Assembly (NCBI GenBank): GCA_029262275.1
Contig: JAJCZS010000009.1
Span: forward strand, 4,284-68,283
Source: Deltaproteobacteria bacterium
Lineage (GTDB): Bacteria > Desulfobacterota_D > UBA1144 > Nemesobacterales > UBA2774
Length of the DNA stretch: 64,000 nucleotides
Direction of reading: 5' to 3'
Position numbers and translations under genes: made by a program. Shown here in pieces: positions 5,035 through 40,632 of this stretch (positions are counted from its first letter, which is position 1; each line of letters starts with the position of its first letter). The notes below the pieces were generated by a model, which saw only the letters and a program-made list of their open reading frames with translations, searched no databases and was not told the origin of the DNA.

Positions 5035-5062
5035 AGTTCTTGAATTTAAGTGGTATTAGGTT

Positions 5063-8035: not shown

Positions 8036-8075
8036 GGGTCATATTAAATTAAGATTTCTTGGAGGGAAATCATAT

Positions 8076-23053: not shown

Positions 23054-23184
23054 TTTTGGCTACATTCTCTTATTAGAGCACTAAATAGAGAATATTAGCA
23101 AGGAGCAAGAGGAAACAAATTAAAAATTGTAATTGCTATCGAAGCTCAAAACATTTGATATAAATCAAATTACAAACAATAGCT

Positions 23185-23676: not shown

Positions 23677-24523
23677 TGCTCCATGCACCTTCAGCTGATG
23701 CTTTCTCTAAATAGTCTCTAAAATCTCTTGGCTCTCTCCCGAGAGCACGCTGAACGCCGTCGCATAGATAGGAGTTTCTTCCGTCTAAAACTGTTGTAAA
23801 AAGATAGTTAACTAGATCAATATATTCTTTTGGTACTCCTTCTTGCTCCATTCCGTCTGAGAAATCCTGTGCAGAGATCTGCATGTACTGAAGATCGATT
23901 CCTGCTCCCTCTGAAATCTCTTTAACTGCCTGGGTGAATGTCATAAGCCTTGGTCCGGTTAGCTCATAAAGCTCGCCACTGTGACCTTCTTCTGATAATG
24001 CAGCAACCGCAACGTCGGCTATGTCATCAGCATCGATAAAGGGCTCTTGAACATCTCCTGCTGGAAGTGCTAGTGTTCCTGAGAGAATTAAATCCCTCAT
24101 GAACGCCTCGCTGAAGTTCTGTGCGAACCAGCTAGCTCTGACAACTGTCCATTCAACACCCGAGTTCATCACGATCTGCTCACATCTCTGAGCTTCTTCT
24201 TCACCCCTGCCCGAGAGAAGTACTAATTTTTTAACGCCGCTTTTAACTGCAAGATCCGTAAATGCCTGAATTGCCTCTGGTGCTCCAGGCACTGCTAGGT
24301 CGGGATAGAATGAGACATAGACAGAGCTTATCCCATCAAGTGCAGGAGACCATGTGCTTTGGTCATACCATTCAAACCCTGGGTCTACGCTTCTAGAGCC
24401 TACCCTCACAGACAAACCCTTATCTCTTAATTGATCAACTATTCTACGACCTGTTTTTCCTGTACCGCCGAGAATTAAAATATTGTTCTTTTCTAATTCA
24501 TTATCGTTGGTATTATGCATCAC
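23654..24523 (-). CDS. NmrA-like NAD(P)H-binding protein
   Basis: GGTGKTGRR Rossmann motif; RASWFAQNFSE. Confidence 0.9.
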   Translation of the reverse strand: MMHNTNDNELEKNNILILGGTGKTGRRIVDQLRDKGLSVRVGSRSVDPGFEWYDQSTWSPALDGISSVYVSFYPDLAVPGAPEAIQAFTDLAVKSGVKKLVLLSGRGEEEAQRCEQIVMNSGVEWTVVRASWFAQNFSEAFMRDLILSGTLALPAGDVQEPFIDADDIADVAVAALSEEGHSGELYELTGPRLMTFTQAVKEISEGAGIDLQYMQISAQDFSDGMEQEGVPKEYIDLVNYLFTTVLDGRNSYLCDGVQRALGREPRDFRDYLEKASAEGAWSNEEVSSG

Positions 24524-24842
24524 ATGCTCCTTTTACAGTAGAAAGTTTTACTGAATATCTGGTATAAAATTTATTATAGCAAATATATTCCTTTTACAAA
24601 ATTGAATTTAATCTCCGTCTTTTTTTTAACTGAGAAAATCTTTAGATATGACAAGTGTGGAAACATTGTGACTTCTGCACACGACATTTCTTAAGTCATA
24701 TTCTTTTATCAATAGGACTAATCCAATCTTAACTTTAGTTGAATCTTACTTTGAAGAAACTACATCCTAAAAAGTAATATTTGATATGATTGCAAGATAC
24801 TAGGTTTTAATGCGATCTAAATTTTAAATTTAGGAGAATAAA

Positions 24843-25301
24843 ATGACTGATATAGCTGTTGCTAATGAAGATGATGCCAGCGTGCTAAGTAACATTTCCT
24901 TGATGGCATTTAAAGAAGATTATGATAAGTACGGTTCTTATCCTACCGGTATTGAATCCTCAAAATGGCATGAATCACAAATAAAAAAAGGCAATTATTA
25001 CAAAATAAAGTTCGATGATGTGGTTGTAGGTGGCATTGATTTAATTTGTAAGGAATCCGACCACATTGAAGTAGGGTTGTTCTATATAAGCCCAGATTAC
25101 CAAAACAAAAAAATTGGTGTGTCAACGATAAACTTGGTTGAAAAGAAATATCCAAACATTCGGAAATGGTCATTAGTAACACCTTACAAGGATTATAGGA
25201 ATCATCATTTTTATGAAAAATTAGGTTATGTAAAAATTGGTGAATATCGTCCTGAACCTGATTCGGATTTCACTTTGTATGAATATGAAAAAATAGTATA
25301 G
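24843..25301 (+). CDS. GNAT family N-acetyltransferase
   Basis: ISPDYQNKKIG and HHFYEKLGY motifs. Confidence 0.85.
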   Translation: MTDIAVANEDDASVLSNISLMAFKEDYDKYGSYPTGIESSKWHESQIKKGNYYKIKFDDVVVGGIDLICKESDHIEVGLFYISPDYQNKKIGVSTINLVEKKYPNIRKWSLVTPYKDYRNHHFYEKLGYVKIGEYRPEPDSDFTLYEYEKIV

Positions 25302-25330
25302 GATAATTAAGATCAGAAGAGGTATGTATA

Positions 25331-25762
25331 ATGAGTAAAGAAAAATTCCTGCTTCCTTCAATGTGGTTTCTAAGGATTGCTCTTGCGATTTCATTCCTTT
25401 CAGCTGTTGCAGATCGATTTGGCTTATGGGGATCGCCCGGAGCTGCAAATGTTGCCTGGGGTGATTGGCCGACATTTGTGGAGTAAGTTGCAGTACTGAA
25501 CTGGTTTGCTCCTTTTTTTTTGATCACAATATTAGCATGGGCAGCAACTATATTTGAATTAATAATTGCAATTGGATTGCTTATTGGCTGGCACTTACGC
25601 TGGTTTGCACTTTCAGGCGGAGTACTTCTGCTGTTATTTGCGATTACTATGACATTAGCGTTCGGAATTAAAACGCCTCTAGATTATTCAGTGTTTAGTG
25701 CTTCTGCTGGTGCATTTCTATTAGCAATAATTAGTTCTAAGGAAGTAACTGTGGAATTGTAA
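25331..25762 (+). pseudogene. DoxX family membrane protein with an in-frame TAA at codon 52 (25484-25486)
   Basis: LRIALAISFLSAVADRFGLWG...AWGDW before the stop; frame continues into the track ORF 25520-25762. Confidence 0.75.
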
Positions 25763-26111
25763 ATAATATGCTTTATTAAATGATCAATTTTTGAAATTCA
25801 AGACTTAAACCTATACTGCAGCATCTAAGACCTATGTAATGACCTTTGTACTAGCTTGGTTATAATCAGTTCTTAGTGGTAGAACAATATTCTCAAATAG
25901 TTAGAATTGCTGGATTTATTTCAAATCACTCTTACGATATGGTCCGATTATAAGGGAGCAGATCAATTCATTTTCTTAATCCCTTGGATTCTATTATTTT
26001 CTAAGTTTATATGATTCAGGTAGGTATTTTGGAAATAAAAGAAATTTTCCAGCTCATTAATAATGACTATAACAAACTAGGGGTTTGGTTCATATTAAGA
26101 CCAAGAAACTA

Positions 26112-26537
26112 TTAGTACTTGCATTCCCCAATCGATCCAGGCTCACACTGTCTTCCATTAACCCAGTAGGTATTATCGAAGATAGCTCCGTCCAACTTTG
26201 CACCACCTATTAATGATTTTGTGAGAAATGCAGAAATAACCTTAGCATCCTCAAAATTGGTTCCTTGAAGGTTTACTCCTAATAAAGAAGCTCCAGTAAG
26301 ATTGGCCTGAGAAAGATTAGCTCCTTCAAGATTAGCTAATTTTAAGTCTGCCCCAGAAAGGTTCGCGTTGCTTAAATCTATATCTTTTAAGTATGCACCG
26401 GCCTTATTGCAACCTTGCCAGTCTACACCTGGCCCCGGAGGATCATCGCACTTTGCAAAAGCAGTAAATGTAATTAGAAGAACAACAGAGCTACTTAGAA
26501 ATGTTCTGAAAAGTAACCTTAATAATTTTTTGTTCAT
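26112..26537 (-). CDS. secreted pentapeptide repeat protein
   Basis: A(N/D)L(S/T)x repeats bracketed by Cys motifs; signal peptide. Confidence 0.9.
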   Translation of the reverse strand: MNKKLLRLLFRTFLSSSVVLLITFTAFAKCDDPPGPGVDWQGCNKAGAYLKDIDLSNANLSGADLKLANLEGANLSQANLTGASLLGVNLQGTNFEDAKVISAFLTKSLIGGAKLDGAIFDNTYWVNGRQCEPGSIGECKY

Positions 26538-26608
26538 AAAGTATTACCTCTATTTATATAGACATATCACAAAAGTACCCACAGTCAATATAAAAAATCG
26601 AAATACTT

Positions 26609-27466
26609 CTATTGATTTTTGTCGGGAGTCCACATTACTGATCTCACACTACCTTCTAAGATCTCGAACATTTTATAATCAGGGTAGAGCTCCTTCATCT
26701 TATTTATTGCATCATCTATAGTTTCAGAATTGTTAGCCGACTCTTTAAAATTCATCAAATATTCCTCAGCCCGCTCCAGAATCTCAGCAGTTCCAACCGG
26801 CCCGTGTCCAGGATAAACACTAGTGATGGGACCGATGGAGCGAATGGTCTTAAGTTGTTCCAGCCAGTTATCAATATTATTTTCACCCAACCACATATGT
26901 ACGCCATTACTTGCTAGATCCCCAACGAATAAGGTTTCATGTGATGGAATATAGATGATGGTATTTTCAATGCTTTCGCCGTTTCTGAAAGTCTTGAAGA
27001 TAACAGTTGTATCTTCATGTTTAAAACTCTTATTTTCAAGAATAGTTATTTCTCCAAAATCCTGCGGTTCTCCTTCGGCATCTTTCCAGTATTTCATCGT
27101 GTTTTTAACCTCGGCAATAGTACGAGACCCCCCCATGATTTCGGCATCTTCAAACTCAATCCCCAGAACCTCAAGACCATAATAATGGTCTGGGTGAGGA
27201 TGAGTGATTACTATCTTTGATAACTTTTTACCAGTGGAGCTGATTAAATCTCTAGCCTTCCTACCCTCCTTAGAGGAAAATTGTGCATCAATTAGAATAG
27301 CTTCATTTTCTCCTATGAGGATATGGGAATTACTCAAAAACCCTTCCGGGGATGCTTTGTAAGTTACAACGGAGAAATTAACCTTTGTATCAGTCGGAGC
27401 AGACAAGGATATAAATGAAAAAGAAAACGTAAATGAAAAAAGAAAAATAGATATAAAGATCAGCAT
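26609..27466 (-). CDS. secreted MBL-fold metallo-hydrolase
   Basis: THPHPDH, GDL and PGHG motifs; start moved from 27658 because the track ORF overlaps the P460 gene. Confidence 0.85.
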   Translation of the reverse strand: MLIFISIFLFSFTFSFSFISLSAPTDTKVNFSVVTYKASPEGFLSNSHILIGENEAILIDAQFSSKEGRKARDLISSTGKKLSKIVITHPHPDHYYGLEVLGIEFEDAEIMGGSRTIAEVKNTMKYWKDAEGEPQDFGEITILENKSFKHEDTTVIFKTFRNGESIENTIIYIPSHETLFVGDLASNGVHMWLGENNIDNWLEQLKTIRSIGPITSVYPGHGPVGTAEILERAEEYLMNFKESANNSETIDDAINKMKELYPDYKMFEILEGSVRSVMWTPDKNQ

Positions 27467-27515
27467 AGAAGATCTATAAACCTGGCTAAAACTATAATTA
27501 TTAAGTTTGAATAAC

Positions 27516-28064
27516 CTACTTAAGAACCGGATAGCCTTCAATGTATATCCAATCGGTTTGTTTAGCAGGTATGTGACAGCCAAGGCAATCCTTTTTGTAA
27601 TTAGTTGAAACATCTTTTGAAGGGTCATCAGCATAATAAAGAGCCCATCCCCATCCATCGCCCCACTTAGGATTATCGGGGAATCTCCCTTTTTCGTCCT
27701 TTACCATAACAAACCAGAGCACAAGGTCTTGGGCATGCAATACCCCTTTTCCAGTAGTCATGTCCTGGACAGCTTCAGAAAGTACTTCCTTTACTAGCAC
27801 TGCCCCATCAGGGAACTTGTTGCCATTTTTCTTATATTTCTCGACCACTCCAGGCTCTGTGTATACGTTATGAATACCGCTCTTCCTGTCCTCGGGATGT
27901 ACCCAGGAACCCAGGTACGTCCATTTCTCACGGAACTCAGTAGGGCGTGTAATATTACCCTCTGAGTCCACATATCGCGAGAATGATTCATTTTCCTCGG
28001 CATGTGCGGAAAACAGTAATCCTAGCGTAAATATGGTAACTACTGTTAATAATAGGCTATTCAT
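27516..28064 (-). CDS. cytochrome P460 family protein (Phe at the distal Glu-equivalent position)
   Basis: C-terminal CLGCH, cross-link-type Lys in GAVLVKE, GWGW motif; GGAGG RBS before ATG 28064. Confidence 0.85.
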   Translation of the reverse strand: MNSLLLTVVTIFTLGLLFSAHAEENESFSRYVDSEGNITRPTEFREKWTYLGSWVHPEDRKSGIHNVYTEPGVVEKYKKNGNKFPDGAVLVKEVLSEAVQDMTTGKGVLHAQDLVLWFVMVKDEKGRFPDNPKWGDGWGWALYYADDPSKDVSTNYKKDCLGCHIPAKQTDWIYIEGYPVLK

Positions 28065-28130
28065 ATAATGCTTCCTCCTTATTTTGATTTCACGGCCCGG
28101 ATAAGCACATAATACTGTGCACTTACCCAA

Positions 28131-28757
28131 TCACTTACATGGACGCATAGCACGCGCATGCAGAGCATTAGTCTTCTTCTGGCTATTCAGCACAAGACCA
28201 TCGAAGAAATTCACAGTCCAAGCGTTGTCAGCAATGATTTTGCTTTCTGTAGAGGTCCAATAGTAGGTTGTAGCAGTTTCTCCAAAGACACTGCTCGCTG
28301 GACGAAACGAACTATAGTTTACTATGCTTTGTAATTTTTTTACATCCGGGATACACCAGTCCATATGTCCCGTGAATCCACATTTTTCACCCTTAGCACA
28401 GTCCTTATTACCTTCACAATCGGTTACTCCTTCACCTTCACATGTGTTGTTAAGCGCGTTTAGAAAACCTTCAAACAAAGACCCATCAAGACCGGTATCA
28501 TCATTACCCTCAGTCCAGGTATAGGTATTGTCCACATCATGAATGCTATCGTTGTCAGTTTTAATCTCCCACACGATATTAGTTTCCTCATCCGTAAATG
28601 TACCGTCTCCGTTGTCCTTGTAATTTGATGACGGACCGTACCTTTCTACCCCAATTGCATTGGGTATATAGTACCCTTCACCAGGAAAATAACCTGAGTC
28701 TATGTTCATAATAGCTAAAATTAGCATTGCCAAAAGTGCTAGAAAAAGCTTCCCCAT
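28131..28757 (-). CDS. DUF1566 (Lcl C-terminal) domain secreted protein
   Basis: NGDGTFTD...W, YWTST, AWTVNFFDG motifs. Confidence 0.85.
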   Translation of the reverse strand: MGKLFLALLAMLILAIMNIDSGYFPGEGYYIPNAIGVERYGPSSNYKDNGDGTFTDEETNIVWEIKTDNDSIHDVDNTYTWTEGNDDTGLDGSLFEGFLNALNNTCEGEGVTDCEGNKDCAKGEKCGFTGHMDWCIPDVKKLQSIVNYSSFRPASSVFGETATTYYWTSTESKIIADNAWTVNFFDGLVLNSQKKTNALHARAMRPCK

Positions 28758-28873
28758 TCAGTTACTTCTCCTCTAAAGTGAATTGGCATATATTAAATTC
28801 TTAGCTTGTAATCCACATTACAAGAAGATTTTATGACTTATATATAGATATTTATCTGATAATTATGTCCTTA

Positions 28874-29488
28874 TTATTTTTTCCCCTGCATCACAGATTG
28901 TGCTGCTCTTAATACAGGATAGTACTGTGTAAACACCCAGTCCTCAGCTGCAGCTGCCTGATGACAAGCGTTACAGGACGCCGCTGGCTGTAATTTAGCT
29001 GATTCAGGATAGGGAGGGGGCTTGTGACTGAATGAGAAATATACCCAATTGCCGGGCTCGTCAGGGTAGCGTTTTTTACTCTTATACGCGGCCTCGAGTC
29101 CTATAAATTCTCCCTCAAAAAAGCCTTTACCACTTACGGCCTGAGTCGCACCTACGCTCACAAGCTCTTTTATTAACAAAGTGCCTTCAGGGAATTCTCC
29201 GGTCTTTGAGTAATGCTCAAAGCTGTCGGGATCCATATAAACGTTGTGAAATTCAGGAAATGGTGCTTCAGGGGGATTAAGCGAATTTGGAGTAAGGGGA
29301 GTACCGACATATATCCATTTCCTCCACGCAAAATCCTTGGGCTGAATCAAGTTTCCTTCTTTATCGAATTGTGCATGCTCTTTCGATTCGGCTTGAGGAA
29401 TTGATAATCCTACCATCACAATGAATAAAAAGACGGCTACTGATGTAAAGACCCGATAAACAAAATACTTTGAAAAAACTCTAGACAT
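28874..29488 (-). CDS. cytochrome P460 (CytL-like, distal Glu retained)
   Basis: PLTPN...EFHNVY, GTLLIKELVSVG, IGLEA, CNACH, VFTQYYPVLRAA. Confidence 0.9.
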   Translation of the reverse strand: MSRVFSKYFVYRVFTSVAVFLFIVMVGLSIPQAESKEHAQFDKEGNLIQPKDFAWRKWIYVGTPLTPNSLNPPEAPFPEFHNVYMDPDSFEHYSKTGEFPEGTLLIKELVSVGATQAVSGKGFFEGEFIGLEAAYKSKKRYPDEPGNWVYFSFSHKPPPYPESAKLQPAASCNACHQAAAAEDWVFTQYYPVLRAAQSVMQGKK

Positions 29489-30042
29489 TTAAAACCTCCT
29501 TAAAAATGATTGTTTCAGAAAATCATATTCGCGAGGCTAAAAAGCAAGAACTTTCATAAAAAAATTATTTTTTAAGGACACAATTGGGAAACAACGAAAC
29601 GGTAGTGGAGATCTGTAAGAAGGGAAATATTGAACTGATAATTAAATTGAGACCCGCCGTAACCCATATGATAGCAAAGCTAAATATCCGCCCCCTAACC
29701 TAATTCCAACCTTATCACAATTATAAATTAATATCAAGGATTCTTTAATCATGCTTAATATGGCCGTGTTGTTTCACTGTGGTGCATTAAATAACTATGC
29801 TTCAGGGATATTTAGAATGTGTCCCCAATCTGTATTTTCTAAGAGCTTTGACATAACTATTCTTCACTTTACAGATCTGTATATCAAACTACATCCAATA
29901 ATTATGATTACGGTATGTCGACAAATAATGATATTTCATAACATAAAACTATTTGATTCATAACATTGAATTCCACGCTAAAAATAAATATTTTCATATA
30001 TTTAAGGCACTTAGGTGGTTTTGCTAATTGTGCAAACAAGTT

Positions 30043-30058
30043 TGGCACACCCCTTGCA
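30043..30058 (+). promoter_or_regulatory. sigma-54 -24/-12 promoter upstream of the cupin operon
   Basis: TGGCAC-ACCCC-TTGCA. Confidence 0.8.
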
Positions 30059-30096
30059 CTATATGAAGATAAATCAATTGTTAAGGAGGCAGTAAA

Positions 30097-30570
30097 ATGA
30101 GTGAAGCGTTAAGAATGAGTAGCGAATTTAAGCAAGACCCGATTTTAGTAATGCCAGGAGGTGGCGATGAAATACTCATGGGCGGAAGCCAGTTTCTTCA
30201 CAAAGTTAAGAGTGAAGCTACAAACAATGTGTTTTCCGTAATTGAGATTATCAGCCCACCTGGAAAAGGAGTTTCCATGCATGTCCACGAAAACGAGGAC
30301 GAGCTTGTATATCTTCTTGAGGGAGAAATAGAAGTCACCCTAGGGGATCAAACTATGACTGCTGTTGCAGGAGTAATGGCTCTCTTGCCAAGAGGTATCC
30401 CTCATGCGTTTGTAAATAAGGGAGATAAACCAAGCAGGCTTCTCGATACTATTTTGCCAGGCCCGTTTGATAATTATTTTGTTGAGCTTGCTGCGTTATA
30501 TTCCGCAGGCGAGCCTTCAGATGAAGAAGTAGATGCTTTATCAAAAAAATACTCAATCCAATATTTATAA
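30097..30570 (+). CDS. cupin domain protein
   Basis: HVHENEDE...GE and PRGIPHAF motifs. Confidence 0.85.
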   Translation: MSEALRMSSEFKQDPILVMPGGGDEILMGGSQFLHKVKSEATNNVFSVIEIISPPGKGVSMHVHENEDELVYLLEGEIEVTLGDQTMTAVAGVMALLPRGIPHAFVNKGDKPSRLLDTILPGPFDNYFVELAALYSAGEPSDEEVDALSKKYSIQYL

Positions 30571-30604
30571 TTGGATTGTTATAAAAAAAATAGGAGGAAT
30601 TAAA

Positions 30605-30961
30605 ATGAAACATTTAAGACTTATAACACTATCATTAGTATTGGCAATTGCTTTTTCTGTAGCTTTCAGCGGTTCATCTTTCGCAGATAGTAAGGATGAT
30701 CATGCGACAATAAATGGTAATGTCATTTGCTTATTGCCGGATTACAAAACCGGTACTGTTAATCCAGTTATTGCTACAGCACCATGTGACGGCTATCCGC
30801 CACATCATCATGTAGTTGTAACAGACACAGCTGTTTATTCGCTTCAAGGTTTACAGGATGGTTTAACCAAAATTGAAAAGAACCCTAATAGAACAAATGT
30901 TGCTCTCACTGGTAAGATTCAGGGAAGTGAACAAACCGGATGGGTGCTCTTTGTAAACTAA
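30605..30961 (+). CDS. secreted hypothetical protein (Cys/His motif)
   Basis: GGAGG RBS, signal peptide, ICLL...PCDGYPPHHH. Confidence 0.65.
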   Translation: MKHLRLITLSLVLAIAFSVAFSGSSFADSKDDHATINGNVICLLPDYKTGTVNPVIATAPCDGYPPHHHVVVTDTAVYSLQGLQDGLTKIEKNPNRTNVALTGKIQGSEQTGWVLFVN

Positions 30962-31081
30962 CAGAACAATAATATAAGGGAAAGGACTCATTACCTTTAA
31001 GAGTATTGAGTCCTTTTTTCAACACATAAGATCTAAATGTATAAGAATTGAATTTCAAGACAAATAGGAGGTAATACCATC

Positions 31082-31639
31082 ATGAGTAAAAATTCTTTTG
31101 GAATCTCAGTAGTAGTACTGGCAGTGGCTATAATAGTTTCCGTTTTTTCAGTTTCCGTAAATGCCGATAAGGCTCCGTCTCCCGCAGATCTAAATGATCT
31201 AGAAATAGCACATGTAGCATATACGGCAGACAATATAGATATTCGTTATGCTCACCTAGCACTCGCAAAATCCAAAAACCCGGTAGTAATAGAGTTTGCC
31301 GAAATAATGGTTCGAGATCATACTGGAGTTAACGAGCAGGCATTGGCTCTTCTTAAAGAACTCAATGCACAGCCGCAGGATAACTTCCTGAGCCAGCAGC
31401 TTAATCAACAAGCTGATAAGCTAGTTGAAGAGATGAGTGCTTTAAATGGAGCTGAGTTTGACAAAGCCTACGCAGAAAACGAGCTTGCTTACCACAAGGC
31501 AGTAAATGGTTTAGTTGAAGGTACTTTCATCCCAAATATTCAGAATCCACAAATGAAAGTGCTTTTCGAACAGGCACTTGTAATCTTTAAGGCCCATCAG
31601 GATAAAGCTCAAAATATGGTTGAGGCGGTTAACAAATAA
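31082..31639 (+). CDS. DUF4142 domain secreted protein (ferritin-like)
   Basis: LNDLEIAH...MVRDH...FDKAY...ELAYH pattern. Confidence 0.85.
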   Translation: MSKNSFGISVVVLAVAIIVSVFSVSVNADKAPSPADLNDLEIAHVAYTADNIDIRYAHLALAKSKNPVVIEFAEIMVRDHTGVNEQALALLKELNAQPQDNFLSQQLNQQADKLVEEMSALNGAEFDKAYAENELAYHKAVNGLVEGTFIPNIQNPQMKVLFEQALVIFKAHQDKAQNMVEAVNK

Positions 31640-31640
31640 T

Positions 31641-31997
31641 ATGACAATACTAAAAACATCGTTAAGGACTGTAATGGTTTTAACATTTACAGTCCTTATT
31701 TCTGGATCGTTGTTGCCCGGTTTAGTTGGTGACTCAAAGAGCGAAGAACATACTGTAGAGATAAGAAATCTTCAGTTTACTCCACAGGAGCTAAATGTGG
31801 CACCAGGTGATACAATTATCTGGATTAACCATGATTTTGTTCCACACACTGTCACAGCAGACAATGAAAGTTGGGACTCTGGACTCATCAAAGCAAATGG
31901 ACAATGGCAGCTAGTTGTCAAAGAAGAAATGCTCACAACCTATTTTTGTCGTTATCACCCGACTATGAAAGCAGGATTTCAAATAGGGCAAAAATAG
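31641..31997 (+). CDS. cupredoxin (plastocyanin/azurin-like) copper protein
   Basis: PHTV and CRYHPTM type-1 Cu ligands. Confidence 0.85.
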   Translation: MTILKTSLRTVMVLTFTVLISGSLLPGLVGDSKSEEHTVEIRNLQFTPQELNVAPGDTIIWINHDFVPHTVTADNESWDSGLIKANGQWQLVVKEEMLTTYFCRYHPTMKAGFQIGQK

Positions 31998-32000
31998 TTT

Positions 32001-32117
32001 AGTGAACACGTAGATAAAAACAGACAGACTGAATGGAAAAAAGATATAACAGGAAATATCGTAAAGGCTTACGAGAACTGGCCTAACATTAAAGATAAAG
32101 CCACATCAGACCTATAA
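32001..32117 (+). pseudogene. 3' remnant of a YHS-domain gene, paralogue of 35869-36333
   Basis: In-frame WKKDITGNIVKAYENWPNIKDKATSDL* versus WFEDIPGNIVKANKHWPNIKDKDPADL*; no start codon; followed by a terminator hairpin (32128-32168). Confidence 0.75.
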
Positions 32118-32443
32118 CCTCTTTCTGAGACCGGAAGGGCTTATTTTTACGTCCTTCTGGTCTTTTTTGCCACCACAACAATCTAAACTATAGTTATAAG
32201 TGTATTGGATACTATCTTCTTTACACCAAACGTAATTATGTTTCTCCCTATAGTATTTAAACTCAAAAGATCTCAATCCTTTGCTCCTTGGATTGTAAAA
32301 TACTATCTTTGTCTACTTGAAGAAATACAGCCTTTATATCTTCATTATTAGTTATATGAAAATATACTTTAAGTTGCATTCTTTATAAGATTATGATTAT
32401 AATGGGGATATCATGCGGGAGATGACAATTTGTATTCAAAAAT

Positions 32444-34048
32444 ATGAATAACAATAAGTCTGAGGCTAAAGAAACTTCACGGTTAATTACTACCGATGGT
32501 AAATTCTCTGATGAATCCATTAAGATTCTAGTTGAAAAAACTATATCCGTTACTGGCAAAGAGTTTTTTAATATACTTGTGAAAAACCTCTCAGATGTAT
32601 TAGGAGTTAACTATGTATTTGTGTCGAAATGTCTTAATATCGAAAGAACTAGAGTAAGAACTCTGGCTTTCTGGGAAAAGAACAAATTTGGTGATGCATT
32701 GGAATATGATCTTCAAGGAACTCCTTGTAAGAATGTTATTTCTGGTGAGTTTTGTTGTTATGATGATAATGTAATCAGCTTATATCCTGATGATAAGGAT
32801 TTAATATATTATGATGCCAAATGTTATTTGGGCATTCCTATTTATAATTCAAAAAACTTAGTCGTAGGACATCTTGCTATTTTTAATGATGAATCCTTTA
32901 GCGAAATTTCTAGATATTATTCAATCTTACAAATTTTTGCTCTGAGGGCTGGTGCAGAAATGGAAAGACTTAAGATGGAAGATTCATTAAGGCAGAGTCA
33001 TGACAACCTGGAAAAAGCCTTCAAAGAAATTGAAAAACTTAAAGATAAGCTAGAGATGGAAAACCAGTCTCTTCAGGAAGAAATAAAAACATCTCATAAC
33101 CATGAAGAGATAATCGGCGACAGCAAGATTCTTAAAGAAATAATGAGTAAGGTCGAAACCGTATCTCTTACAGATTCGACGGTATTAATCAGAGGAGACA
33201 CAGGAACGGGTAAGGAGCGTATAGCAAGGGCCATTCATAATCTAAGTTCAAGAAATGAAAGAGCACTAATCAAAGTCAATTGTCCTGCAATTCCCTCAGG
33301 ATTAATTGAGAGTGAATTGTTCGGGCACGAAAAGGGTGCATTTACTGGAGCACTTACTAAGAAAATCGGAAAATTCGAATTAGCTGACGGTGGCTCTATT
33401 TTCCTAGATGAATTAGGAGATCTCCCTATAGATGCTCAGGCAAAACTGCTTAGAGTTCTGCAGGAAAGAGAGTTTGAACGTGTTGGCGGAGCTGAAACTA
33501 AGGAAGTGGATGTCCGAGTAATTGCTGCAACAAATAGGGATTTGGAAACTGCTGTAAAGGAAGGTAAGTTTCGGGCAGATCTATATTACAGATTAAATGT
33601 GTTTCCATTAGTTCTACCTTCTCTTAAAGATCGTAAAGAAGATATCCCGATGCTTGCTACCTACTTTACACAGAAATATTCACGCAGAATGGGCAGAAAT
33701 ATAAGTTCCATAAATGAAGAAGATGTCGCTAGATTAAAATCCTATTCATGGCCTGGGAATATAAGAGAATTGGAAAATGTTATTGAAAGAGCGGTTATTC
33801 TCTCTAAAAGTAATAAACTCGAGATAAATGAAGAATTTTTTGGAGCATTGTCTGACTTGATTACTAGTGATGATAAGAGTTTAAACTTGGAGGATATTGA
33901 GCGAAACCACATTGTTGATGTTTTAAACAAAACCAATTGGAAAATAAATGGTGACGATGGTGCTGCAAAAATATTGGGTATAAACCCCAGTACTCTCAGA
34001 AGTCGGATGGCTAAATTAGGTATCGAAAAAATAAATGCACTTAAATAG
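32444..34048 (+). CDS. sigma-54-dependent enhancer-binding protein (GAF-AAA+-Fis HTH, FhlA-like)
   Basis: GDTGTGKE, ESELFGHEKGAFTGA, FLDE, WPGNIREL, C-terminal HTH. Confidence 0.95.
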   Translation: MNNNKSEAKETSRLITTDGKFSDESIKILVEKTISVTGKEFFNILVKNLSDVLGVNYVFVSKCLNIERTRVRTLAFWEKNKFGDALEYDLQGTPCKNVISGEFCCYDDNVISLYPDDKDLIYYDAKCYLGIPIYNSKNLVVGHLAIFNDESFSEISRYYSILQIFALRAGAEMERLKMEDSLRQSHDNLEKAFKEIEKLKDKLEMENQSLQEEIKTSHNHEEIIGDSKILKEIMSKVETVSLTDSTVLIRGDTGTGKERIARAIHNLSSRNERALIKVNCPAIPSGLIESELFGHEKGAFTGALTKKIGKFELADGGSIFLDELGDLPIDAQAKLLRVLQEREFERVGGAETKEVDVRVIAATNRDLETAVKEGKFRADLYYRLNVFPLVLPSLKDRKEDIPMLATYFTQKYSRRMGRNISSINEEDVARLKSYSWPGNIRELENVIERAVILSKSNKLEINEEFFGALSDLITSDDKSLNLEDIERNHIVDVLNKTNWKINGDDGAAKILGINPSTLRSRMAKLGIEKINALK

Positions 34049-34194
34049 GAATTCCTGATTGTTATTAAATCCCATAATATCTCTATATTTCATAAGTATT
34101 AATACACAAGATCTGTAATCAAATTATTATGTTTAATTCTAATAGTGCTATAATCCATTAACTTTTAGGCAGTATTAATTGTCTGACTTAATAG

Positions 34195-34210
34195 TGGCAT
34201 GGGTCTTGCA
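34195..34210 (+). promoter_or_regulatory. sigma-54 -24/-12 promoter upstream of the STAS gene
   Basis: TGGCAT-GGGTC-TTGCA. Confidence 0.75.
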
Positions 34211-34257
34211 ATATATCAAGTTGTGTAAATAAGAAGCTATTTTAGAGGTAATTAGTA

Positions 34258-34539
34258 GTGTTCAGAATCACTTTATTGTACAAAGATGATAGATCTATAA
34301 AGTTGAAGATCGATGGGAGACTATCGGGCTCATTTGTAATGGAATTAAAAAAAGAGTATTTAAAGCTTCAAGAAGAAAATAATATAATGTTAATACTAGA
34401 TCTCTCGGGAGTAAGTTATATAGAATCAGAGGCGATATTAATGTTAGAACAGCTACCCAGTGATAGTATGAAGATTGTTGACAGCCCAATCTTCATACAG
34501 AAACAATTGCAACATATCATATCCAAGGAAACGGATTAA
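34258..34539 (+). CDS. STAS domain protein
   Basis: LKIDGRL...LDLSGVSYIES pattern. Confidence 0.75.
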   Translation: MFRITLLYKDDRSIKLKIDGRLSGSFVMELKKEYLKLQEENNIMLILDLSGVSYIESEAILMLEQLPSDSMKIVDSPIFIQKQLQHIISKETD

Positions 34540-34778
34540 ATGTTTGTATTTATTCAAGAAAGCCTTGTTTTAAATCATATATAGAAAGTATTAACCTTAT
34601 CTCAGTATTTTTAGATTCCTTTCCATACAAAGTAGTACTCATAAATTCCTATTGTTTAATTTTCGAAGCAAATTAAGCAATCATATAGACAGGGTATATG
34701 AATAGTATATTAAATCGATAGGACTGATGTAAGCAAATTTCAATTCTAATAACATGTACCTCTCATATTTATCGTAGA

Positions 34779-34794
34779 TTGTGAAATTTCACAA
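34779..34794. promoter_or_regulatory. perfect 16-bp palindrome, candidate EBP enhancer site
   Basis: TTGTGAAATTTCACAA about 130 bp upstream of a -24/-12 promoter. Confidence 0.5.
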
Positions 34795-34922
34795 ATTTAT
34801 CACATAACATAAATATTTAGCTCTTCAGAAACAATTCAATATTCAAAATGTACCACTCCTACTTTAATTTAATGTAGTTATATAAGGTAGTTATGTTGTC
34901 TGTGCGCCCCTCAAATAATCTT

Positions 34923-34938
34923 TGGCACACTCTTTGCA
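34923..34938 (+). promoter_or_regulatory. sigma-54 -24/-12 promoter upstream of the ECF sigma gene
   Basis: TGGCAC-ACTCT-TTGCA. Confidence 0.8.
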
Positions 34939-34993
34939 CTTAGTACGATCGTGTTAGTTAACATTCTGAAAAATAGAATAAAGGAGAGAAAAG

Positions 34994-35722
34994 ATGAGAA
35001 ATACAAATTTGGCAGAAGTTAGTAGTGTGCAAGATTTAACATCCTATCAGGGTGAACAGAGAGTAATAAAGTACAAATTAAAGTCACCACTAATTGATCA
35101 TTCTGAGGAATTTTCATTCATAGGATATAGAAATGAGGATGATGAAAATTTGGTGAGACTATATCTCGAGCATGAAGATGAGTGGGCATTTAATGAGATT
35201 GTAAACAGATATAGCTGCAAGATATACAGATTGGCACTTAAATACACAAAAAATGAAAGAAATGCTGACGATATTCTTCAAGAAGTTTTCTTAACACTTG
35301 TAGAAAAGCTCGGAACATTTAGAAACGAATCTAAATTCTCTACTTGGCTATATAGCATAGCTAAAAATACTAGCCTGATGTATTTGAGAAGTAATAAAAA
35401 GTATCAAGATGAAAAACAGCTTATAGAAGAAACATTCGGTGAGAAAGAAGCTGCGTACAATATGCCAGCAGAAGATTGGAGATTTATTCCAGATCAAATA
35501 CTCATGGAAGAGAAGGAAAGGCAGAGAATCAACAAAGCATTGATGGAGATACCTGAAATTTACCGTACGGTTCTCCAGCTGAAAGACATGGAAGGACATA
35601 CAAATCAAGAAATTGGCAAATTATTAGGATTGAGCTTAAGTGCTGTTAAATCCAGAGCTAGGAGAGCAAGGATTCAGTTTAAGGATAAATTGTCTAAGTA
35701 CAACTTAGTGGGGCTGATCTAA
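34994..35722 (+). CDS. ECF (sigma-70 group 4) RNA polymerase sigma factor
   Basis: DILQEVF, FSTWLYSIAKN, EIGKLLGLSLSAVKSRARRAR. Confidence 0.9.
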   Translation: MRNTNLAEVSSVQDLTSYQGEQRVIKYKLKSPLIDHSEEFSFIGYRNEDDENLVRLYLEHEDEWAFNEIVNRYSCKIYRLALKYTKNERNADDILQEVFLTLVEKLGTFRNESKFSTWLYSIAKNTSLMYLRSNKKYQDEKQLIEETFGEKEAAYNMPAEDWRFIPDQILMEEKERQRINKALMEIPEIYRTVLQLKDMEGHTNQEIGKLLGLSLSAVKSRARRARIQFKDKLSKYNLVGLI

Positions 35723-35868
35723 GAGATCAGCTCCTAACAAATATTCTCACAAGGGGGTCATGAATATATAAACAAACAATTTGTTCAATGTCAGTGCATT
35801 AAAGAATTAGATATTTAGAGTACACATAAGGACGGAAAGTCTAACAAAAACAAACTAAATAGGAGGTT

Positions 35869-36333
35869 ATGATGAATAAAATTAAATCAATTATGTTAAC
35901 AGTTTTAGTTGTAGCGGTAAGTTTTTTTTCAGTTAATTCTTTTGCGGCATATGTACAAGAAAGCACAACTGGCGTTCTAGGTTATGACCTTGTTGCATAC
36001 CATACAGAAGGCAAACCTGTAAGAGGTGACGGAAACAACCTAGTTGTAATTGACGAAGTGACTTATCTTTTTGCCAACGAGGCAAACAAGAAGGCATTTG
36101 AAGCGAACCCTAATAAATATCTTCCTGCATACGGAGGTTACTGTGCATATGGTACATCAGTAGGTAAGAAGTTTGTCGGAGATCCTGAAGCATGGAAAAT
36201 AGTAGATGGAACTCTATATCTTAATCTCGATAAAAAGATCCAGAAAATATGGTTTGAAGATATTCCAGGCAATATAGTGAAGGCTAATAAGCATTGGCCA
36301 AATATTAAAGACAAAGATCCCGCAGATCTTTAA
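35869..36333 (+). CDS. secreted YHS domain protein (Cys form of the YHS seleno-protein family)
   Basis: GYDLVAY, YLPAYGGYCAYG, WKIVDGTLYLN. Confidence 0.9.
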   Translation: MMNKIKSIMLTVLVVAVSFFSVNSFAAYVQESTTGVLGYDLVAYHTEGKPVRGDGNNLVVIDEVTYLFANEANKKAFEANPNKYLPAYGGYCAYGTSVGKKFVGDPEAWKIVDGTLYLNLDKKIQKIWFEDIPGNIVKANKHWPNIKDKDPADL

Positions 36334-36360
36334 TTAAATATAGAATACAACTTGGCATAG

Positions 36361-36399
36361 AAAAGGAGTACAAGCTTAATTGTTTGTACTCCTTTTTTT
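36361..36399. terminator. intrinsic terminator between the YHS and TetR genes
   Basis: AAAAGGAGTACAA...TTGTACTCCTTTT stem with T tract. Confidence 0.7.
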
Positions 36400-36407
36400 A
36401 TGAGATA

Positions 36408-36977
36408 TTACTTATTATCTAATAGCATGTTTGGCAAGTTTTTAAGAAAGCTTTTAAAAAGTTTTGGGTCATTCATTCCTCTAGACATAACTAGAGAGCC
36501 CTGAAGCATGGCAATAGCATTTTCTGCTCTCTTTCTGCTTTCTTTCCTGCTTAATCCGCTTTCAACAAGCACATTTGACAGTGTTTTAATCCAAACTTCA
36601 AATGCTTCTTTAATATGACTTGTAAAGGGACCTTTTACCATCTCAGGAGATGCCAACATATTTAGTAAACAGGAGTTGTTCCCGCCTGTGTAAAATTCAT
36701 CAAGTTTTTTTGACATTATTTTGATTTTTTTCTCTGGACTTATATCTGTAGTTAATGGAGCCACAATATTTTCTCCTACCCAATTTCCTGCTCGGTTGAG
36801 CACCTCAAGTGCCATTTCTTCTTTTCCACCTGGGAATCTATGATAAAGGCTCGCTTTTTGAAGACCAGTTGCTTTAGAGAGTATGTTTAACGAAGCACCT
36901 TCATAACCATAATCACGAAAGGTTTGAGTAAGTTTTGTCATCAGAGTATCGTCATCAATCCTTTTAGTTCTAGCCAT
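36408..36977 (-). CDS. TetR/AcrR family regulator
   Basis: GYEGASL...GLQKASLYHRFPGGKEE. Confidence 0.92.
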   Translation of the reverse strand: MARTKRIDDDTLMTKLTQTFRDYGYEGASLNILSKATGLQKASLYHRFPGGKEEMALEVLNRAGNWVGENIVAPLTTDISPEKKIKIMSKKLDEFYTGGNNSCLLNMLASPEMVKGPFTSHIKEAFEVWIKTLSNVLVESGLSRKESRKRAENAIAMLQGSLVMSRGMNDPKLFKSFLKNLPNMLLDNK

Positions 36978-37066
36978 TAGTATCTCCTTTGAGTATCCAG
37001 TTCAGTTCATGTCAAGCCCCCAGAAATAGGTCCACCTTTTAAGTTATAAATTTTCATATATTTTCT

Positions 37067-37948
37067 CTAATGAGTTGATATAAATATTTGTTCATTTTCT
37101 TTGGTTTTTTTGTCTTTAACAATAGCTCTTGGAGCTGGTGGTTTGTATCCAAGTGAGCTGTGTGGTCTAACCTCATTGTAGTGTCTTCTCCACTGCTCTA
37201 TCAGTATCTGTGCTTCTTTGAGTGTGTAAAATATCTCTGTGTTAAGTAGCTCATCCCTTAGCTTTCCATTAAAACTCTCGTTGTATCCATTCTCCCAGGG
37301 TGACCCAGGTTCTATATATGCAGTCTTTACTCCAAGGCTTCCTATCCACTCCCTTGTGATTTTTGCTGTAAACTCACTACCGTTATCTGAACGTATGTAG
37401 TTAGGAACTCCCTCTGTAATGAACAGAGTGCTTAGTGTGTCTAATACATCGTCAGCTTTTAAAGATGAACCTACACGTATTGCAAGACACTTTCTTGTAT
37501 ATTCATCTATCACAGTAAGCATCCTTATCTTCTTTCCGTTATGAAGTCTGTCTGAAACAAAGTCATAACTCCACACATGGTTCTTATAGAGAGGTCTGAG
37601 TCTTATACAGGAGCCGTCATTTAAGTAAAGTCTTGCTCTTTTAGGTTGTTTCTTGGGTACTTTAAGTCCTTCCTCTTTCCATATCCTCTCCACTCTTTTA
37701 TGATTCACTACCCATCCCTCAGCTCTAAGTAATGCTGTAATACGTCTATATCCGTATCTTCCGTATTTACCAGCAAGACGTACTATATCTTCTCTTATTA
37801 CCTCTTCTTCCCCTGATTTGTTTGGTTGATGACGCTGCACCGAGCGTGGCTGCCCTAAAACCCTACATGCTCTACGCTCTGATACTCCTAGTTTTTGCTG
37901 TATATGCACTACACATCTGCGTCTACGTTCGGTGCTTAGTAGTTTCCC
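37067..37948 (-). CDS. IS3 transposase OrfB (DDE), reached by -1 frameshift
   Basis: [28 protein letters not shown] motifs; frame open back to the slippery site. Confidence 0.92.
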
Positions 37949-38214
37949 TCTGATGATTCCTTAAGTATTTGATTATCCAGTGTAAGGTCTGCTACTGCTC
38001 TCTTTAGTCTTGAGTTCTCTTTCTCTAGTTCTTTTAGCCGTTTTGCCTGATTGACTTGCATACCACCGTATTCCTTCCTCCAGCGGTAATAAGTGTTCAC
38101 TGTTACCCCTATCTCTCTGCATATCTCTGATAGATTCCTGCCCTCAGAAGAGAGTACTTCTGCTTGACGAAGTAGCCTTATTATCTGCTCTGGGGTATAA
38201 CGTTTCCTGCCCAT
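37936..38214 (-). CDS. IS3 transposase OrfA (HTH)
   Basis: KRYTPEQII...[11 protein letters not shown]...LEKENSRLK. Confidence 0.92.
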
Positions 38215-38294
38215 TCATCTGTCCTCCTATGTATAGGGTTTTCTCTCTAAAAAATATCTTAACTTATGGTCCTATTATAGGGGGGAAGGTCACC

Positions 38295-38372
38295 CTTAAA
38301 ACCACTCATTTTTACCCCTTCTTAGCAAGTATACAGGAGAGAGTTAGACTCAGAAGCCGACCTAGGCATTAG
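38295..38372 (+). repeat. second copy of the element left end (P' arm remnant + integrase tail), 64/78 nt identical to 22976-23053
   Basis: Manual alignment without gaps; translates LKTTHFYPFLASIQERVRLRSRPRH*. Confidence 0.85.
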
Positions 38373-38488
38373 CTATCAGTAAACCCTTCGAACGATTGTT
38401 CTTTTAAAACTTCTTGAATTAACTTATGAAACTGTGATAAAATTTCTGCATCTAAGCAGGAGAGAAAACACATTTTAGGAGCTGAAGG

Positions 38489-39382
38489 ATGAAGAGATTA
38501 AATACTATTCATATTACTATATTATTTGTTTTCACTGTGTTATTTGGTATAGAAACCACATGGGCACAACCAGAAGAAATCACATTTAACTTCACAGGGG
38601 ATCAACAATCATTTGTAGTTCCACCTAATGTTTTTAGTATCCATATCCAAGCCTGGGGTGCTCAAGGTGCAAATGTTGTCGGTCCTCAAACTACGGGACT
38701 AGGGGGATTAGGGGGTATGGCAGAGGGAGATTTAGAGGTTACTCCTGGACAAGTACTTGAAATATTTGTAGGGGGTCAAGGTTGTGTCCAGTCTACATTT
38801 GAATTAGGGTGTGGAGGTTTCAATGGTGGTGGAAATGCACAAGGTTCAACAGGGAATGAACGAGGTGGTGGTGGTGGAGCTTCCGATGTTAGAGTAGGTG
38901 GAACAACTTTGAATAACAGAGTGATAGTTGCGGCAGGTGGCGGAGGAGCTTGTCCTTTTTCAGTTAGACCGGGTGGCAATGGAGGAGGACTAATAGGTGA
39001 TGCTGGAGGTGGTTTAGCTGGACAAGGTGGAACACAGAACGCTGGAGGGGAGGGTTTCTCTGTTCCACTGTGTCTGTCTGGGGGATTTGGTTTCGGCGGT
39101 GATGCCGCTGTTGCGATTGGAATATGTTCTGGCGGTGGTGGTGGCTGGTATGGCGGTGGTAGCGGCTGCGGTGCAGGCGGTGGCTCATCCTACATTGACG
39201 GTGTAACCAATGGTAATACGGCTCCTGGAATTAGAGATGGAGATGGTATGGTTGTTATTATGTTTACACCCCCAGTAGTGAGAAACGTCCCTACCCTATC
39301 CGAATGGGGTCTAATTGCAATGGCTACTCTTTTTGGAATCGTAGGATTTATAGTAATAAGAAGAAGGGAACTAACAACGTAG
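38489..39382 (+). CDS. glycine-rich (ALK/LTK-type Gly-rich domain) IPTL-CTERM surface protein
   Basis: AWGAQG, GGGGASDVR, GGGGGWYGGG; C-terminal VPTLSEWG + TM helix + RRR. Confidence 0.85.
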   Translation: MKRLNTIHITILFVFTVLFGIETTWAQPEEITFNFTGDQQSFVVPPNVFSIHIQAWGAQGANVVGPQTTGLGGLGGMAEGDLEVTPGQVLEIFVGGQGCVQSTFELGCGGFNGGGNAQGSTGNERGGGGGASDVRVGGTTLNNRVIVAAGGGGACPFSVRPGGNGGGLIGDAGGGLAGQGGTQNAGGEGFSVPLCLSGGFGFGGDAAVAIGICSGGGGGWYGGGSGCGAGGGSSYIDGVTNGNTAPGIRDGDGMVVIMFTPPVVRNVPTLSEWGLIAMATLFGIVGFIVIRRRELTT

Positions 39383-39529
39383 AGAAAAATTGCTATTCCA
39401 ATTAATTTCTTCAAGGGAGCTTGGCACAAAAGTGTCCGCTCCCTTTTTTATTTTAAAATCTTTTTAGTTATTGGTATTGATTAATGTGTTCTCAGCATGA
39501 TAAAGTGAGATTTAGATAAAGGAGGATGC

Positions 39530-40201
39530 ATGATATCAAAGTACAGAAGAAGAAAATTATATATCTACCCAAAGATAACAGAAGAAGAATTTGTAAAAAA
39601 AGTTAAAGAAAACCCTTTCTGTATACACAAAGATATAAAAGTTATTAGGTCTTTATATGTTTTAGAAACCTGTTGTTTATCTAGGAATACAAAAATTAGT
39701 GATACAGCCAAGAACATCCTTAGTAAAGTTGGTCTAGAGGCGTTTATTCCCAAAGGCTCAAAGAAGCGTAAGAGTACAGATGTAAATTTAAAAAGAATAG
39801 GTCCTAGAAAGATCTATTTTTCTATAAAGAGTTATGAATATGAATTAAAAACTACACTTGATAAAAGATACTCTTCAAAACAGATAGATAAAAAGAAGAG
39901 AGATATAAAACGAGTCTATAAGAACCTCTTTAATGTCGACCCTTCAGAATCGGACCTTGTTATGTTTTGTAAATTAGAAGGTAAAAGAAACATAGCAATA
40001 ATGTTTTTCTGTTCAGTTCATAACATTAAACATAGATATGAATCAGTGAGAGTGAAATATCACGAACTTATAAAAAATAATATAAAAGAAAATTTGATGT
40101 CTGAAGTACCTAGATTGTTTATAGATTTACAACATCTGAAGTACTTTATTAAAAATAAGTATTACAGTAAAATGTTCCTGTATTATAAAAACATCCCTTA
40201 A
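39530..40201 (+). CDS. hypothetical basic (Lys-rich) protein
   Basis: 223-aa ORF with AAGGAGG RBS; no motif recognised. Confidence 0.6.
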   Translation: MISKYRRRKLYIYPKITEEEFVKKVKENPFCIHKDIKVIRSLYVLETCCLSRNTKISDTAKNILSKVGLEAFIPKGSKKRKSTDVNLKRIGPRKIYFSIKSYEYELKTTLDKRYSSKQIDKKKRDIKRVYKNLFNVDPSESDLVMFCKLEGKRNIAIMFFCSVHNIKHRYESVRVKYHELIKNNIKENLMSEVPRLFIDLQHLKYFIKNKYYSKMFLYYKNIP

Positions 40202-40632
40202 AAATTAACCTTATCCTTGTCTCAATTTAGTTGAAAGAAACCTTTTGATTTTTCTTAACCATTTAACTACTCCATTTTAAGTTAAGTTCTATTCATAGTA
40301 ATTAAAGTAGCAGAAACGGACTAGTTATAATGGAAATTAATAACCAAAAAAACCACATTATAAAAGTTAAATATAAACCAGTTAGCTCATCAGCAAATAA
40401 GCTAGAAGACTTAATAAAGCTACTTGCTAATTCAAGAAACACGAAGTCCTATAAAACTCATGAACCAAAGTGTGATAGTCATAAAAAGAGTAGAAAATAG
40501 ATGATTTTCAACAAACAAGTCGGGGAAATACGAGGGGTTTATATATATAGTTTATTTAACTTGATTACATACTACTCCCTTCAAAATACAAACTTACTAT
40601 TATCAATTCTAATTTTTTTAAGGAGAATAGAT

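Follow-up and report, generated by a model that had tools for sequence, protein, structure and literature searches.

An IS3-family insertion sequence and a truncated 78-nt repeat lie side by side in an island of 25.6 kb inside the competence gene comM, and the locus raises the question of which units were joined at this place and how. The initial annotation of the window, i.e. the whole analysed stretch of 64,000 nt, described two related elements stacked at comM, with an IS3-associated deletion that had removed the integrase of the first element together with the internal junction. A head-to-tail stack was indeed found, the count of two was too low: at least three modules (A, B and C), each acquired separately, are stacked in comM, and a recombinase is present only in the last one, C. 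Along the + strand the order is comM5'-CT-[A, 3 kb]-J1-[B, 11 kb]-IS3-J2-[C, 10 kb with the large serine recombinase, LSR]-CT-comM3', where J1 and J2 are relics of internal junctions. The following features were assigned:

22303–22964, + strand: 5' half of comM including the attL core CT at 22963–22964 (Pfam ChlI/Mg_chelatase)
22965–23053, + strand: P' arm positions 1–22 (22965–22986) and tail 1, the left end of module A
22965–25930, + strand: module A, a recombinase-less cassette of 3.0 kb with Anthrone_oxy-like, NmrA-like and GNAT genes (Pfam)
25925–25965, + strand: junction relic J1 (nhmmer profile match, 20-mer pattern match)
25966–35704, no strand assigned: core of module B, cargo genes (Pfam; collinear with contig L097 of a relative)
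35705–37010, no strand assigned: YHS-domain gene and TetR gene (87% identical to locus L070 of genome G101)
37011–38292, − strand: IS3-family insertion sequence of 1282 bp (Pfam; ends from the copies in relatives)
38295–38372, + strand: junction relic J2, consisting of P' positions 12–22 and tail 2, the left end of module C
38295–48527, + strand: module C, the LSR-bearing element of 10.2 kb (Pfam and PHROGs)
46951–48534, + strand: LSR gene (Resolvase, Recombinase and Zn_ribbon_recom domains)
48528–49406, + strand: attR core CT (48528–48529) and 3' half of comM

Module B extends over 25966–37010. Its core codes, according to Pfam, for a pentapeptide protein, an MBL hydrolase, two cytochrome P460, Lcl_C, cupin and DUF4142 proteins as well as a cupredoxin, a sigma54 EBP, a STAS protein and an ECF sigma factor. 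Module C contains the genes for a glycine-rich IPTL-CTERM protein, two unknown proteins, an XRE repressor, UmuD, UmuC, a Schlafen/AlbA helicase-like protein, a 334-aa protein and the LSR. PHROGs added little for the unknown proteins, a close relative of the left part of module C was not found in 100 related genomes, and an Rfam scan of 22–49.5 kb matched no family. The description of the right part as the carrier of the mobility genes and the left part as pure cargo was accurate, with the LSR, the XRE-type repressor, UmuDC and the helicase-like protein encoded only in the right part, and the cargo of the left part comprising redox, metal-related and regulatory genes. The right part is also the more AT-rich one, as had been noticed: the GC content was 32.7% for 38295–48527, the 0.5th percentile of genome windows of the same size, 36.7% for 22971–37010 and 39.6% for the genome.

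The LSR gene has a probable TTG start at 46951 (527 aa; the longest open reading frame starts at 46909), and the product is 100% identical to P0002 (527 aa). It carries the catalytic serine motif YARVSTERQ and the domains Resolvase (E = 1.5e-27), Recombinase (E = 3.3e-19) and Zn_ribbon_recom (E = 1.7e-14). The last 22 nt of the gene before the core (48506–48527) constitute the P arm, and the stop codon TGA falls in comM sequence. An uninterrupted comM site was present in a relative (L045) and reads cataatctgCTcatgattgg; this empty site, together with the reconstructed attL and attR, fixed the core CT and the boundaries of the island. The attP rebuilt from both ends, GTGGTATTAAGAACACATCATA-CT-TACGATGTGGTCTTAAAACCAC, is a near-palindrome with arms that are inverted repeats, symmetric at 19 of 22 positions. 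The locus combines the characteristics of an LSR integrative element: the recombinase domains, a split target with a shared 2-bp core and inverted-repeat arms. comM is a single-copy gene in the assembly, present as two halves that bracket the island in the correct order and orientation. In the integrated state its frame continues past attL into the element and stops at the TAA at 22978–22980. The LSR at the right end would integrate a circular element into codons 222–224 of comM with a crossover at the CT dinucleotide, and the predicted attP is a 46-bp near-palindrome within the 3' end of the recombinase's own gene. In the circular form, 22965–23053 would lengthen the LSR reading frame by 29 codons. 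Relatives of the LSR were not found in a search of genome contigs, and in 100 related genomes the matches were distant only, with the exception of fragmented copies in G075. The earlier proposal that the left part depends on the integrase of the right part agrees with these results: the left units lack a recombinase and could be mobilised only by an enzyme from another source, for which the LSR is the only candidate in the genome.

The repeat next to the IS3 was reported as a copy of the P' arm and tail without the CT core and the first part of the arm, and this was confirmed in detail. 22976–23053 and 38295–38372 are 82% identical over 78 nt without a gap (E = 5e-16 in the 2.48-Mb assembly, with no further comparable copy), and a profile search revealed one diverged relative site, at C13:25248. 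With the attL core at 22963–22964, P' position 1 is 22965 and 22976 is position 12; thus J2 begins at P' position 12. It is devoid of the core and of P' positions 1–11 and is directly preceded by CC (38293–38294). Both copies are open in frame 0 only and end at the same TAG, with 16 of 25 residues identical, and their likeness ends at this shared stop codon. The 78-nt repeat is the surviving outer half of an LSR junction with the structure P arm-CT-P' arm-tail. Through the junction behind J2, module C with its LSR would once have been connected to a module without a recombinase; neither an intact B|C nor an intact A|C junction turned up among the relatives, and for module C no close relative was present in the collections searched. 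The tail closest to that of J2 was present in L085. Three further candidate features around these junctions were rejected. The string TCACCCTTA, common to the IS3/J2 boundary and to solo junctions, does not represent a 13-nt deletion in P', its TCA being the IS3 end that is seen in seven other copies. A reverse-strand mini-ORF of the form AAGGGG-N5-ATG has only 8 codons in every copy and is not a gene. A solo junction followed by an IPTL-CTERM gene in G101 is not a mirror of the left end of module C, with the sorting signal alone in common.

Junctions of the same family were searched for in public contigs and genomes with a degenerate and then an exact-core pattern, and the sites obtained came from related Thermodesulfobacteriota. 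Nineteen sites were present in 5 genomes versus none for the reversed-pattern control. A full site consists of ~50 nt resembling the LSR 3' end, the CT, the P' arm and a tail. The sites often occur in direct arrays, 0.1–5 kb apart around 1–4 cargo genes; the complete chromosome of G102 has four of them in 7.4 kb, three sites lie inside the comM island of the same genome, and pairs of sites were present in G103 and G104. Sites were often located downstream of terminators. A degenerate tail pattern applied to metagenomes had 12 matches, among them three true relatives (L038, L045 and L047), and the rest was forced by the pattern. No recombinase reading frame ran into any of the 24 full junctions in relatives, including the one at the right end of B in L097; upstream of all 24 were cargo genes or a terminator, followed by the ~50 nt resembling the LSR 3' end. 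The four searchable site-bearing genomes had no close relative of the LSR, the best match being 26–28% identical. The motif AAWACCACNYATTTYTAYCCCTTC is conserved on the DNA level, even at third codon positions, at junctions without an upstream recombinase. In the left arms of the solo junctions the 15 nt with the distal partner of the palindrome are missing; solo junctions are doubtful substrates.

A profile built from 22 junction sites of relatives matched the window at three places: at attL (60.7 bits), at J2 (profile positions 68–138, 49.8 bits) and, weakly, at 25886–25944, the place of J1. J1 retains the P-arm end ATCACT, the core CT (25931–25932) and P' positions 1–12 (25933–25944), so that 25925–25944 reads ATCACT-CT-TACGATATGGTC. 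The corresponding 20-mer ATCACNCTTACGATNTGGTC had its only zero-mismatch occurrence in the genome at J1, and the only further match within two mismatches was a real site at the start of contig C41. J1 also includes a 28-nt remnant of the orfA-proximal end of IS3 (25938–25965), which overlaps the P' portion by TATGGTC and matches at 23 of 28 positions, the best non-self match of this IS end in the genome. Due to the J1 relic inside, the left part of the island has to be seen as a composite of modules A and B. Over its last ~180 nt, which comprise the P-arm remnant, module A has no orthology to the relative's copy. attL, J1, J2 and attR are all on the + strand in direct orientation, with J1 and J2 being partial. 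The break is at P' position 12 in J1 as well as in J2: J1 keeps profile positions 10–68 and J2 68–138, and the two joined give an ungapped, in-register alignment of 77.1 bits, which exceeds the sum of the parts. A subterminal sequence of IS3, CTTAACTTATGGTC, resembles CT plus P' 1–12 (CTTACGATATGGTC) at 11 of 14 positions; hence targeted insertion or microhomology may explain the shared break position.

The separate existence of the modules became apparent in a relative, whose metagenome contig of 153 kb (L097/L099) contains blocks B and A together with three junctions. In the orientation of the window its order is, from the left, X | P-CT-P'(1-12)-IS remnant | B | 90-aa ORF, continued by P-CT-P'-tail 1 | A | full site | D; B precedes A, the reverse of the order in the window. 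Block B (window 25912–35704) is collinear and 90.9% identical to L097, and block A (window 22963–25748), bounded there by the full sites S1 and S2, is 91.8–94.5% identical to L097/L099. The CT core is the point where high identity sets in for both blocks, with unrelated sequence before it; upstream of block A this is the comM arm in the window versus a P arm in L097, where the segment 22965–23053 has its nearly identical counterpart in S1. The left end of module A is also syntenic with L047. The right end of block B in L097 consists of the ECF sigma gene, the 90-aa ORF and a P arm-CT, and no integrase is present. To the left of B the same J1 hybrid was found as in the window, there without IS3 and without J2. 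High identity is lost 183 nt (block A) and ~540 nt (block B) before the next core, thus the history involved more than clean site-specific exchanges. Modules A and B recombine separately between genomes, exchanged at the crossover point. The initially suggested search for stand-alone versions in related genomes revealed A and B apart from C, in another order and at another site, and the whole 25.6 kb was not found as one unit in the relatives, where A and B are reordered without C.

The IS3 consists of orfA (HTH_Tnp_1) and orfB (HTH_21, rve and rve_3) on the minus strand and is present as a single copy in the assembly. Its ends, TG...CA with imperfect inverted repeats, were fixed by seven copies in relatives and one in L034. 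It has the orfA/orfB organisation, the DDE (rve) transposase and the TG...CA ends of the IS3 family, but not the target duplication of 3–5 bp. The flanks TTCA and CCCT and the position next to the TetR upstream region are as initially reported; 33 nt separate the IS from the TetR start codon. Three other complete copies in relatives (G006, G044 and G030) are likewise without a duplication, therefore its absence is only weak evidence for a deletion. Empty sites for the IS3 copies of the relatives were searched for in the genome of the window, where the flanks are not conserved. The YHS-TetR segment resembles, with the identity given above, a chromosomal gene cluster in G101 (L070). There (L070/L071) and in L073 the TetR gene is divergent from genes for a PAS-sigma54 EBP and hydrolases, and in L072 a cut, unannotated divergent gene lies opposite TetR. 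The TetR gene of the window lacks the divergent partner gene that is present in these four related contigs, and the homology stops at 36977–37000, at the IS3. The segment occupies the place where L097 has the 90-aa ORF and the P arm-CT; the YHS-TetR segment has a history different from the rest of B. The replacement of the stretch after the ECF sigma gene by YHS-TetR and IS3, together with the stop of homology at the IS3, points to an IS3-linked replacement or deletion that removed the original right end of B with its P arm, the core and P' 1–11. Of the deletion that was initially postulated, the destruction of the internal junction is borne out; the loss of an integrase is not, in view of the recombinase-free full junctions of the relatives and of the right end of B in L097.

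A tandem accretion of the recombinase-less modules A and B before C, with the B|C junction hit by IS3 afterwards, is probably the history of the island. The anatomy of the island, the modularity seen in the relative, the empty comM site and the loss of the B|C junction are direct observations. In the order of events that we infer from them, modules A (3 kb) and B (11 kb), each starting at a CT-P' junction, would have been stacked in front of module C. The stacking may have proceeded with a circle that the LSR, provided that it is active, recombined into a resident junction, or by homologous recombination within the ~150-nt site. After the stacking, IS3 would have struck the B|C junction, and IS3 plus the YHS-TetR segment, derived from a related chromosomal gene cluster, would now replace the right end of B, the P arm, the core and P' 1–11. 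None of the internal junctions should be usable, with only P' 1–12 left in J1 and only P' from position 12 onwards in J2. As only attL and attR could recombine in an excision, the 25.6 kb appear to be welded into one unit dependent on the LSR of module C, and comM would stay split and inactive. A broader role of the recombinase is a tentative idea: in this group of Thermodesulfobacteriota the LSR may service a pool of recombinase-less cassettes, each starting with CT-P'-tail, that are inserted side by side by junction-by-junction recombination. A reaction of two attP-like sites, or of attP with attL or attR, would then generate integron-like arrays inside and outside of comM, and the reversed order of A and B, broken at the CT core, would directly record this reaction.

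Other histories were weighed against tandem accretion. The join of J1 and J2 in the profile without a gap, at the bit score given above, would be expected if both were halves of one junction, in which A and C were neighbours until an IS3-bounded segment of 12.35 kb (IS3, block B, IS3) was inserted at P' position 12; the left IS3 would later have been lost by deletion between the 7-nt repeats TATGGTC, leaving J1. The 28-nt IS remnant in J1 has the orientation of the intact IS3 and overlaps P' by this heptamer, block B is without a tail at the left and without a P arm at the right, its genes resemble chromosomal clusters in relatives, and a single IS3 without an own duplication would be explained. 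However, L097 has the same J1 hybrid, yet B ends there in its own P arm-CT joined to A, and neither IS3 nor J2 is present. Of a composite transposon only the 28-nt remnant of a left IS copy is seen, 5 of its 28 positions deviate from the intact IS3, and the bracketing triplets (GTC versus CCC) do not form a duplication around the segment. The split of one junction was downgraded on account of the J1 hybrid without a J2 partner in L097 and of the differing triplets, and we regard it as unlikely. Two complete elements, each with its own LSR, of which an IS3-mediated adjacent deletion took the left integrase and the internal junction, are in our estimation quite unlikely, although the truncated junction, the IS3 without target duplication and the missing upstream partner of TetR, a sign that DNA has been lost or replaced there, fit this history. 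Also the ~50 nt to the left of every solo junction, with their resemblance to the LSR 3' end, indicate that recombinase genes were lost from such positions sometime in the past of the family. Against this stand the 24 full junctions of relatives without a recombinase reading frame, the orthologous right end of B in L097 with a 90-aa ORF in place of an integrase, the composite nature of the left part (A, J1, B) and the three other IS3 copies without duplication, which deprive this trait of diagnostic value.

The genome is a draft of 47 contigs and the flanks of IS3 share no duplication, so a contig that joins two places through IS3, or skips DNA between two IS3 copies, had to be considered. Such an artefact is very improbable: the assembly has a single IS3 and none of its contigs ends in IS3 sequence, the halves of the single-copy comM bracket the region in the right order and orientation, and both flanks bear relics of one junction family, on one strand. 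The conservation of AAWACCACNYATTTYTAYCCCTTC even at third codon positions in junctions without an upstream recombinase, and the frequent position of the sites behind terminators, would also suit a conserved element with a regulatory role, as DNA or RNA, with which gene cassettes start. That the repeat is such an element and not a recombination relic is very unlikely, however, as an island whose empty site is known has this sequence as its attL, where it continues the palindrome of the LSR 3' end, the high-identity blocks of the relatives begin at the CT core, and no Rfam family matched.

The case of tandem accretion in comM demonstrates how a serine-recombinase island grows at this gene by the stacking of recombinase-less cargo modules, how modules of this kind can be welded into a larger unit by an insertion sequence, and that they are recombined individually between genomes, with the 2-bp core as the point of exchange. 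If the LSR itself catalyses the stacking, the substrate rules would be wider for serine integrases, which are used as tools in genome engineering. In the annotation of these genomes, module boundaries can be recognised in practice by the P'-tail motif AAWACCACNYATTTYTAYCCCTTC. Mobile elements land in comM repeatedly, and without this gene transformation with heterologous DNA is reduced (PMC11472951). Our literature search found no paper that links comM with large serine recombinases, and islands with serine recombinases made up less than 1% of the islands in one recent survey.

Canonical serine integrases, e.g. those of phiC31, Bxb1 and A118, act by a 2-bp crossover between sites with inverted-repeat attP arms and integrate into a host gene. 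The LSR of the comM island shares the domain set, the 2-bp crossover, the inverted-repeat arms and the integration into a host gene with them. It differs in the arrays of attP-like junctions and in the location of attP within the integrase reading frame; to our knowledge, reactions of attP with attL or attR are forbidden for the canonical enzymes, and we know of no cassette arrays formed by them. The layout, and only the layout, resembles integron arrays, with short, promoter-poor cassettes of 1–4 genes bounded by sites in direct arrays, but an IntI tyrosine recombinase, attI and folded attC sites are not part of the system. Staphylococcal cassette chromosomes (SCC/SCCmec) at rlmH also employ LSRs (CcrAB, CcrC), stack cassettes, include recombinase-less pseudo-SCC units and are frequently remodelled by IS elements. 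The comM island differs from SCC in the target, which is comM and not rlmH, in the structure of the site and probably in the recombinase clade, and membership is not claimed.

The closest resemblance is to islands that grow by accretion. In the accounts cited here for ICESt1 and the CIMEs of Streptococcus thermophilus (Pavlovic et al. 2004, cited through PMC3146451 and bioRxiv 10.64898/2026.01.13.699239), tandem accretion and cis-mobilizable elements are described. As far as these accounts describe them, units with flanking att-type sites but no recombinase share one chromosomal site with an element that has the enzyme, stacked head to tail next to it, and decaying internal junctions weld the units, as in comM. 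According to the same accounts, that system works with tyrosine recombinases and identical direct repeats, whereas the comM island has an LSR, a 2-bp core and full P-CT-P' junctions. The ssrA islands of Dehalococcoides are tandem serine-recombinase islands, of which some units have no integration module and were read as cis-mobilizable (McMurdie et al. 2011, PMC3146451). Common to both is the tandem of serine-recombinase units at a single-copy gene; the Dehalococcoides islands target ssrA with a 20-bp direct repeat of the gene end and have the integration module adjoining attL (PMC3146451), whereas the element described here has entered the coding sequence of comM and split the gene, and its attP is located inside the recombinase reading frame. 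Tandem accretion is thus an established mode of island growth, met here in an unusual family of recombinases; the present case differs in comM as target, an attP inside the recombinase reading frame and the full P-CT-P' junctions.

The longest open reading frame of the large serine recombinase (LSR) at the right end of the comM island begins at TTG 46909 (region 46909-46953) of the window, and the start in relatives and in a database entry (527 aa) is the equivalent of TTG 46951 (M-N-R-A-V-I-Y). Solo junctions are sites of the type P arm, CT, P' arm and tail without a recombinase frame reading into the P arm. Their left arms align with the LSR 3' end (48470-48527 of the window) but lack 15 nt, aaatgtagtggtatt; within these lies GTGGTATT, which forms a palindrome with the distal P' motif. 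Loci with a relative of this LSR or with junctions of its family were located as follows:

1-1760 of ENA ERZ27237539 k141_1476751: L034, LSR relative
4268-9050 of Ga0209633_10000149: L045, comM locus
25248-25333 of C13: further junction site in the own genome, outside the window
1-27 of C41: further junction site in the own genome, outside the window
860000-874000 of G102:C1: L096, comM island of a complete related chromosome

In L034, an LSR of 79 % identity has its 3' end fused to the 5' half of comM, in inverted orientation. The central dinucleotide of this junction is the palindromic AT instead of CT, and with it the control of orientation would be lost. An IS3 copy, its end 91 % identical, is placed exactly at codon 2 of this LSR gene. 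Four complete copies of the IS3 element (window 37011-38292, L051, L052 and L054) all lack a target-site duplication. Such a lack is unusual in the IS3 family and could be explained by chimeras in the draft assemblies or by a peculiarity of this IS3.

The comM of L045 is uninterrupted. Its stop codon is followed immediately by 30 nt duplicated from the comM B arm, then by CT, a P' arm and a tail; beyond these come two cassettes with a solo junction between them, and then a duplicate of comM codons 458-514. This arrangement looks like an old array shifted downstream of a restored comM. The C41 site is truncated at P' position 19 and forms the contig start; C13 carries, besides its junction site, paralogues of the Anthrone_oxy-like and NmrA-like genes of module A, a recombinase-less cassette of the island.

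In the related chromosome G102, comM is interrupted by another LSR (26 % identical) at another comM position (…ILPDMTFEE…). Inside this island are three sites of the junction family of the window, in inverted orientation, which bracket DUF1254/1214, IPTL-CTERM and nitrilase-type genes.
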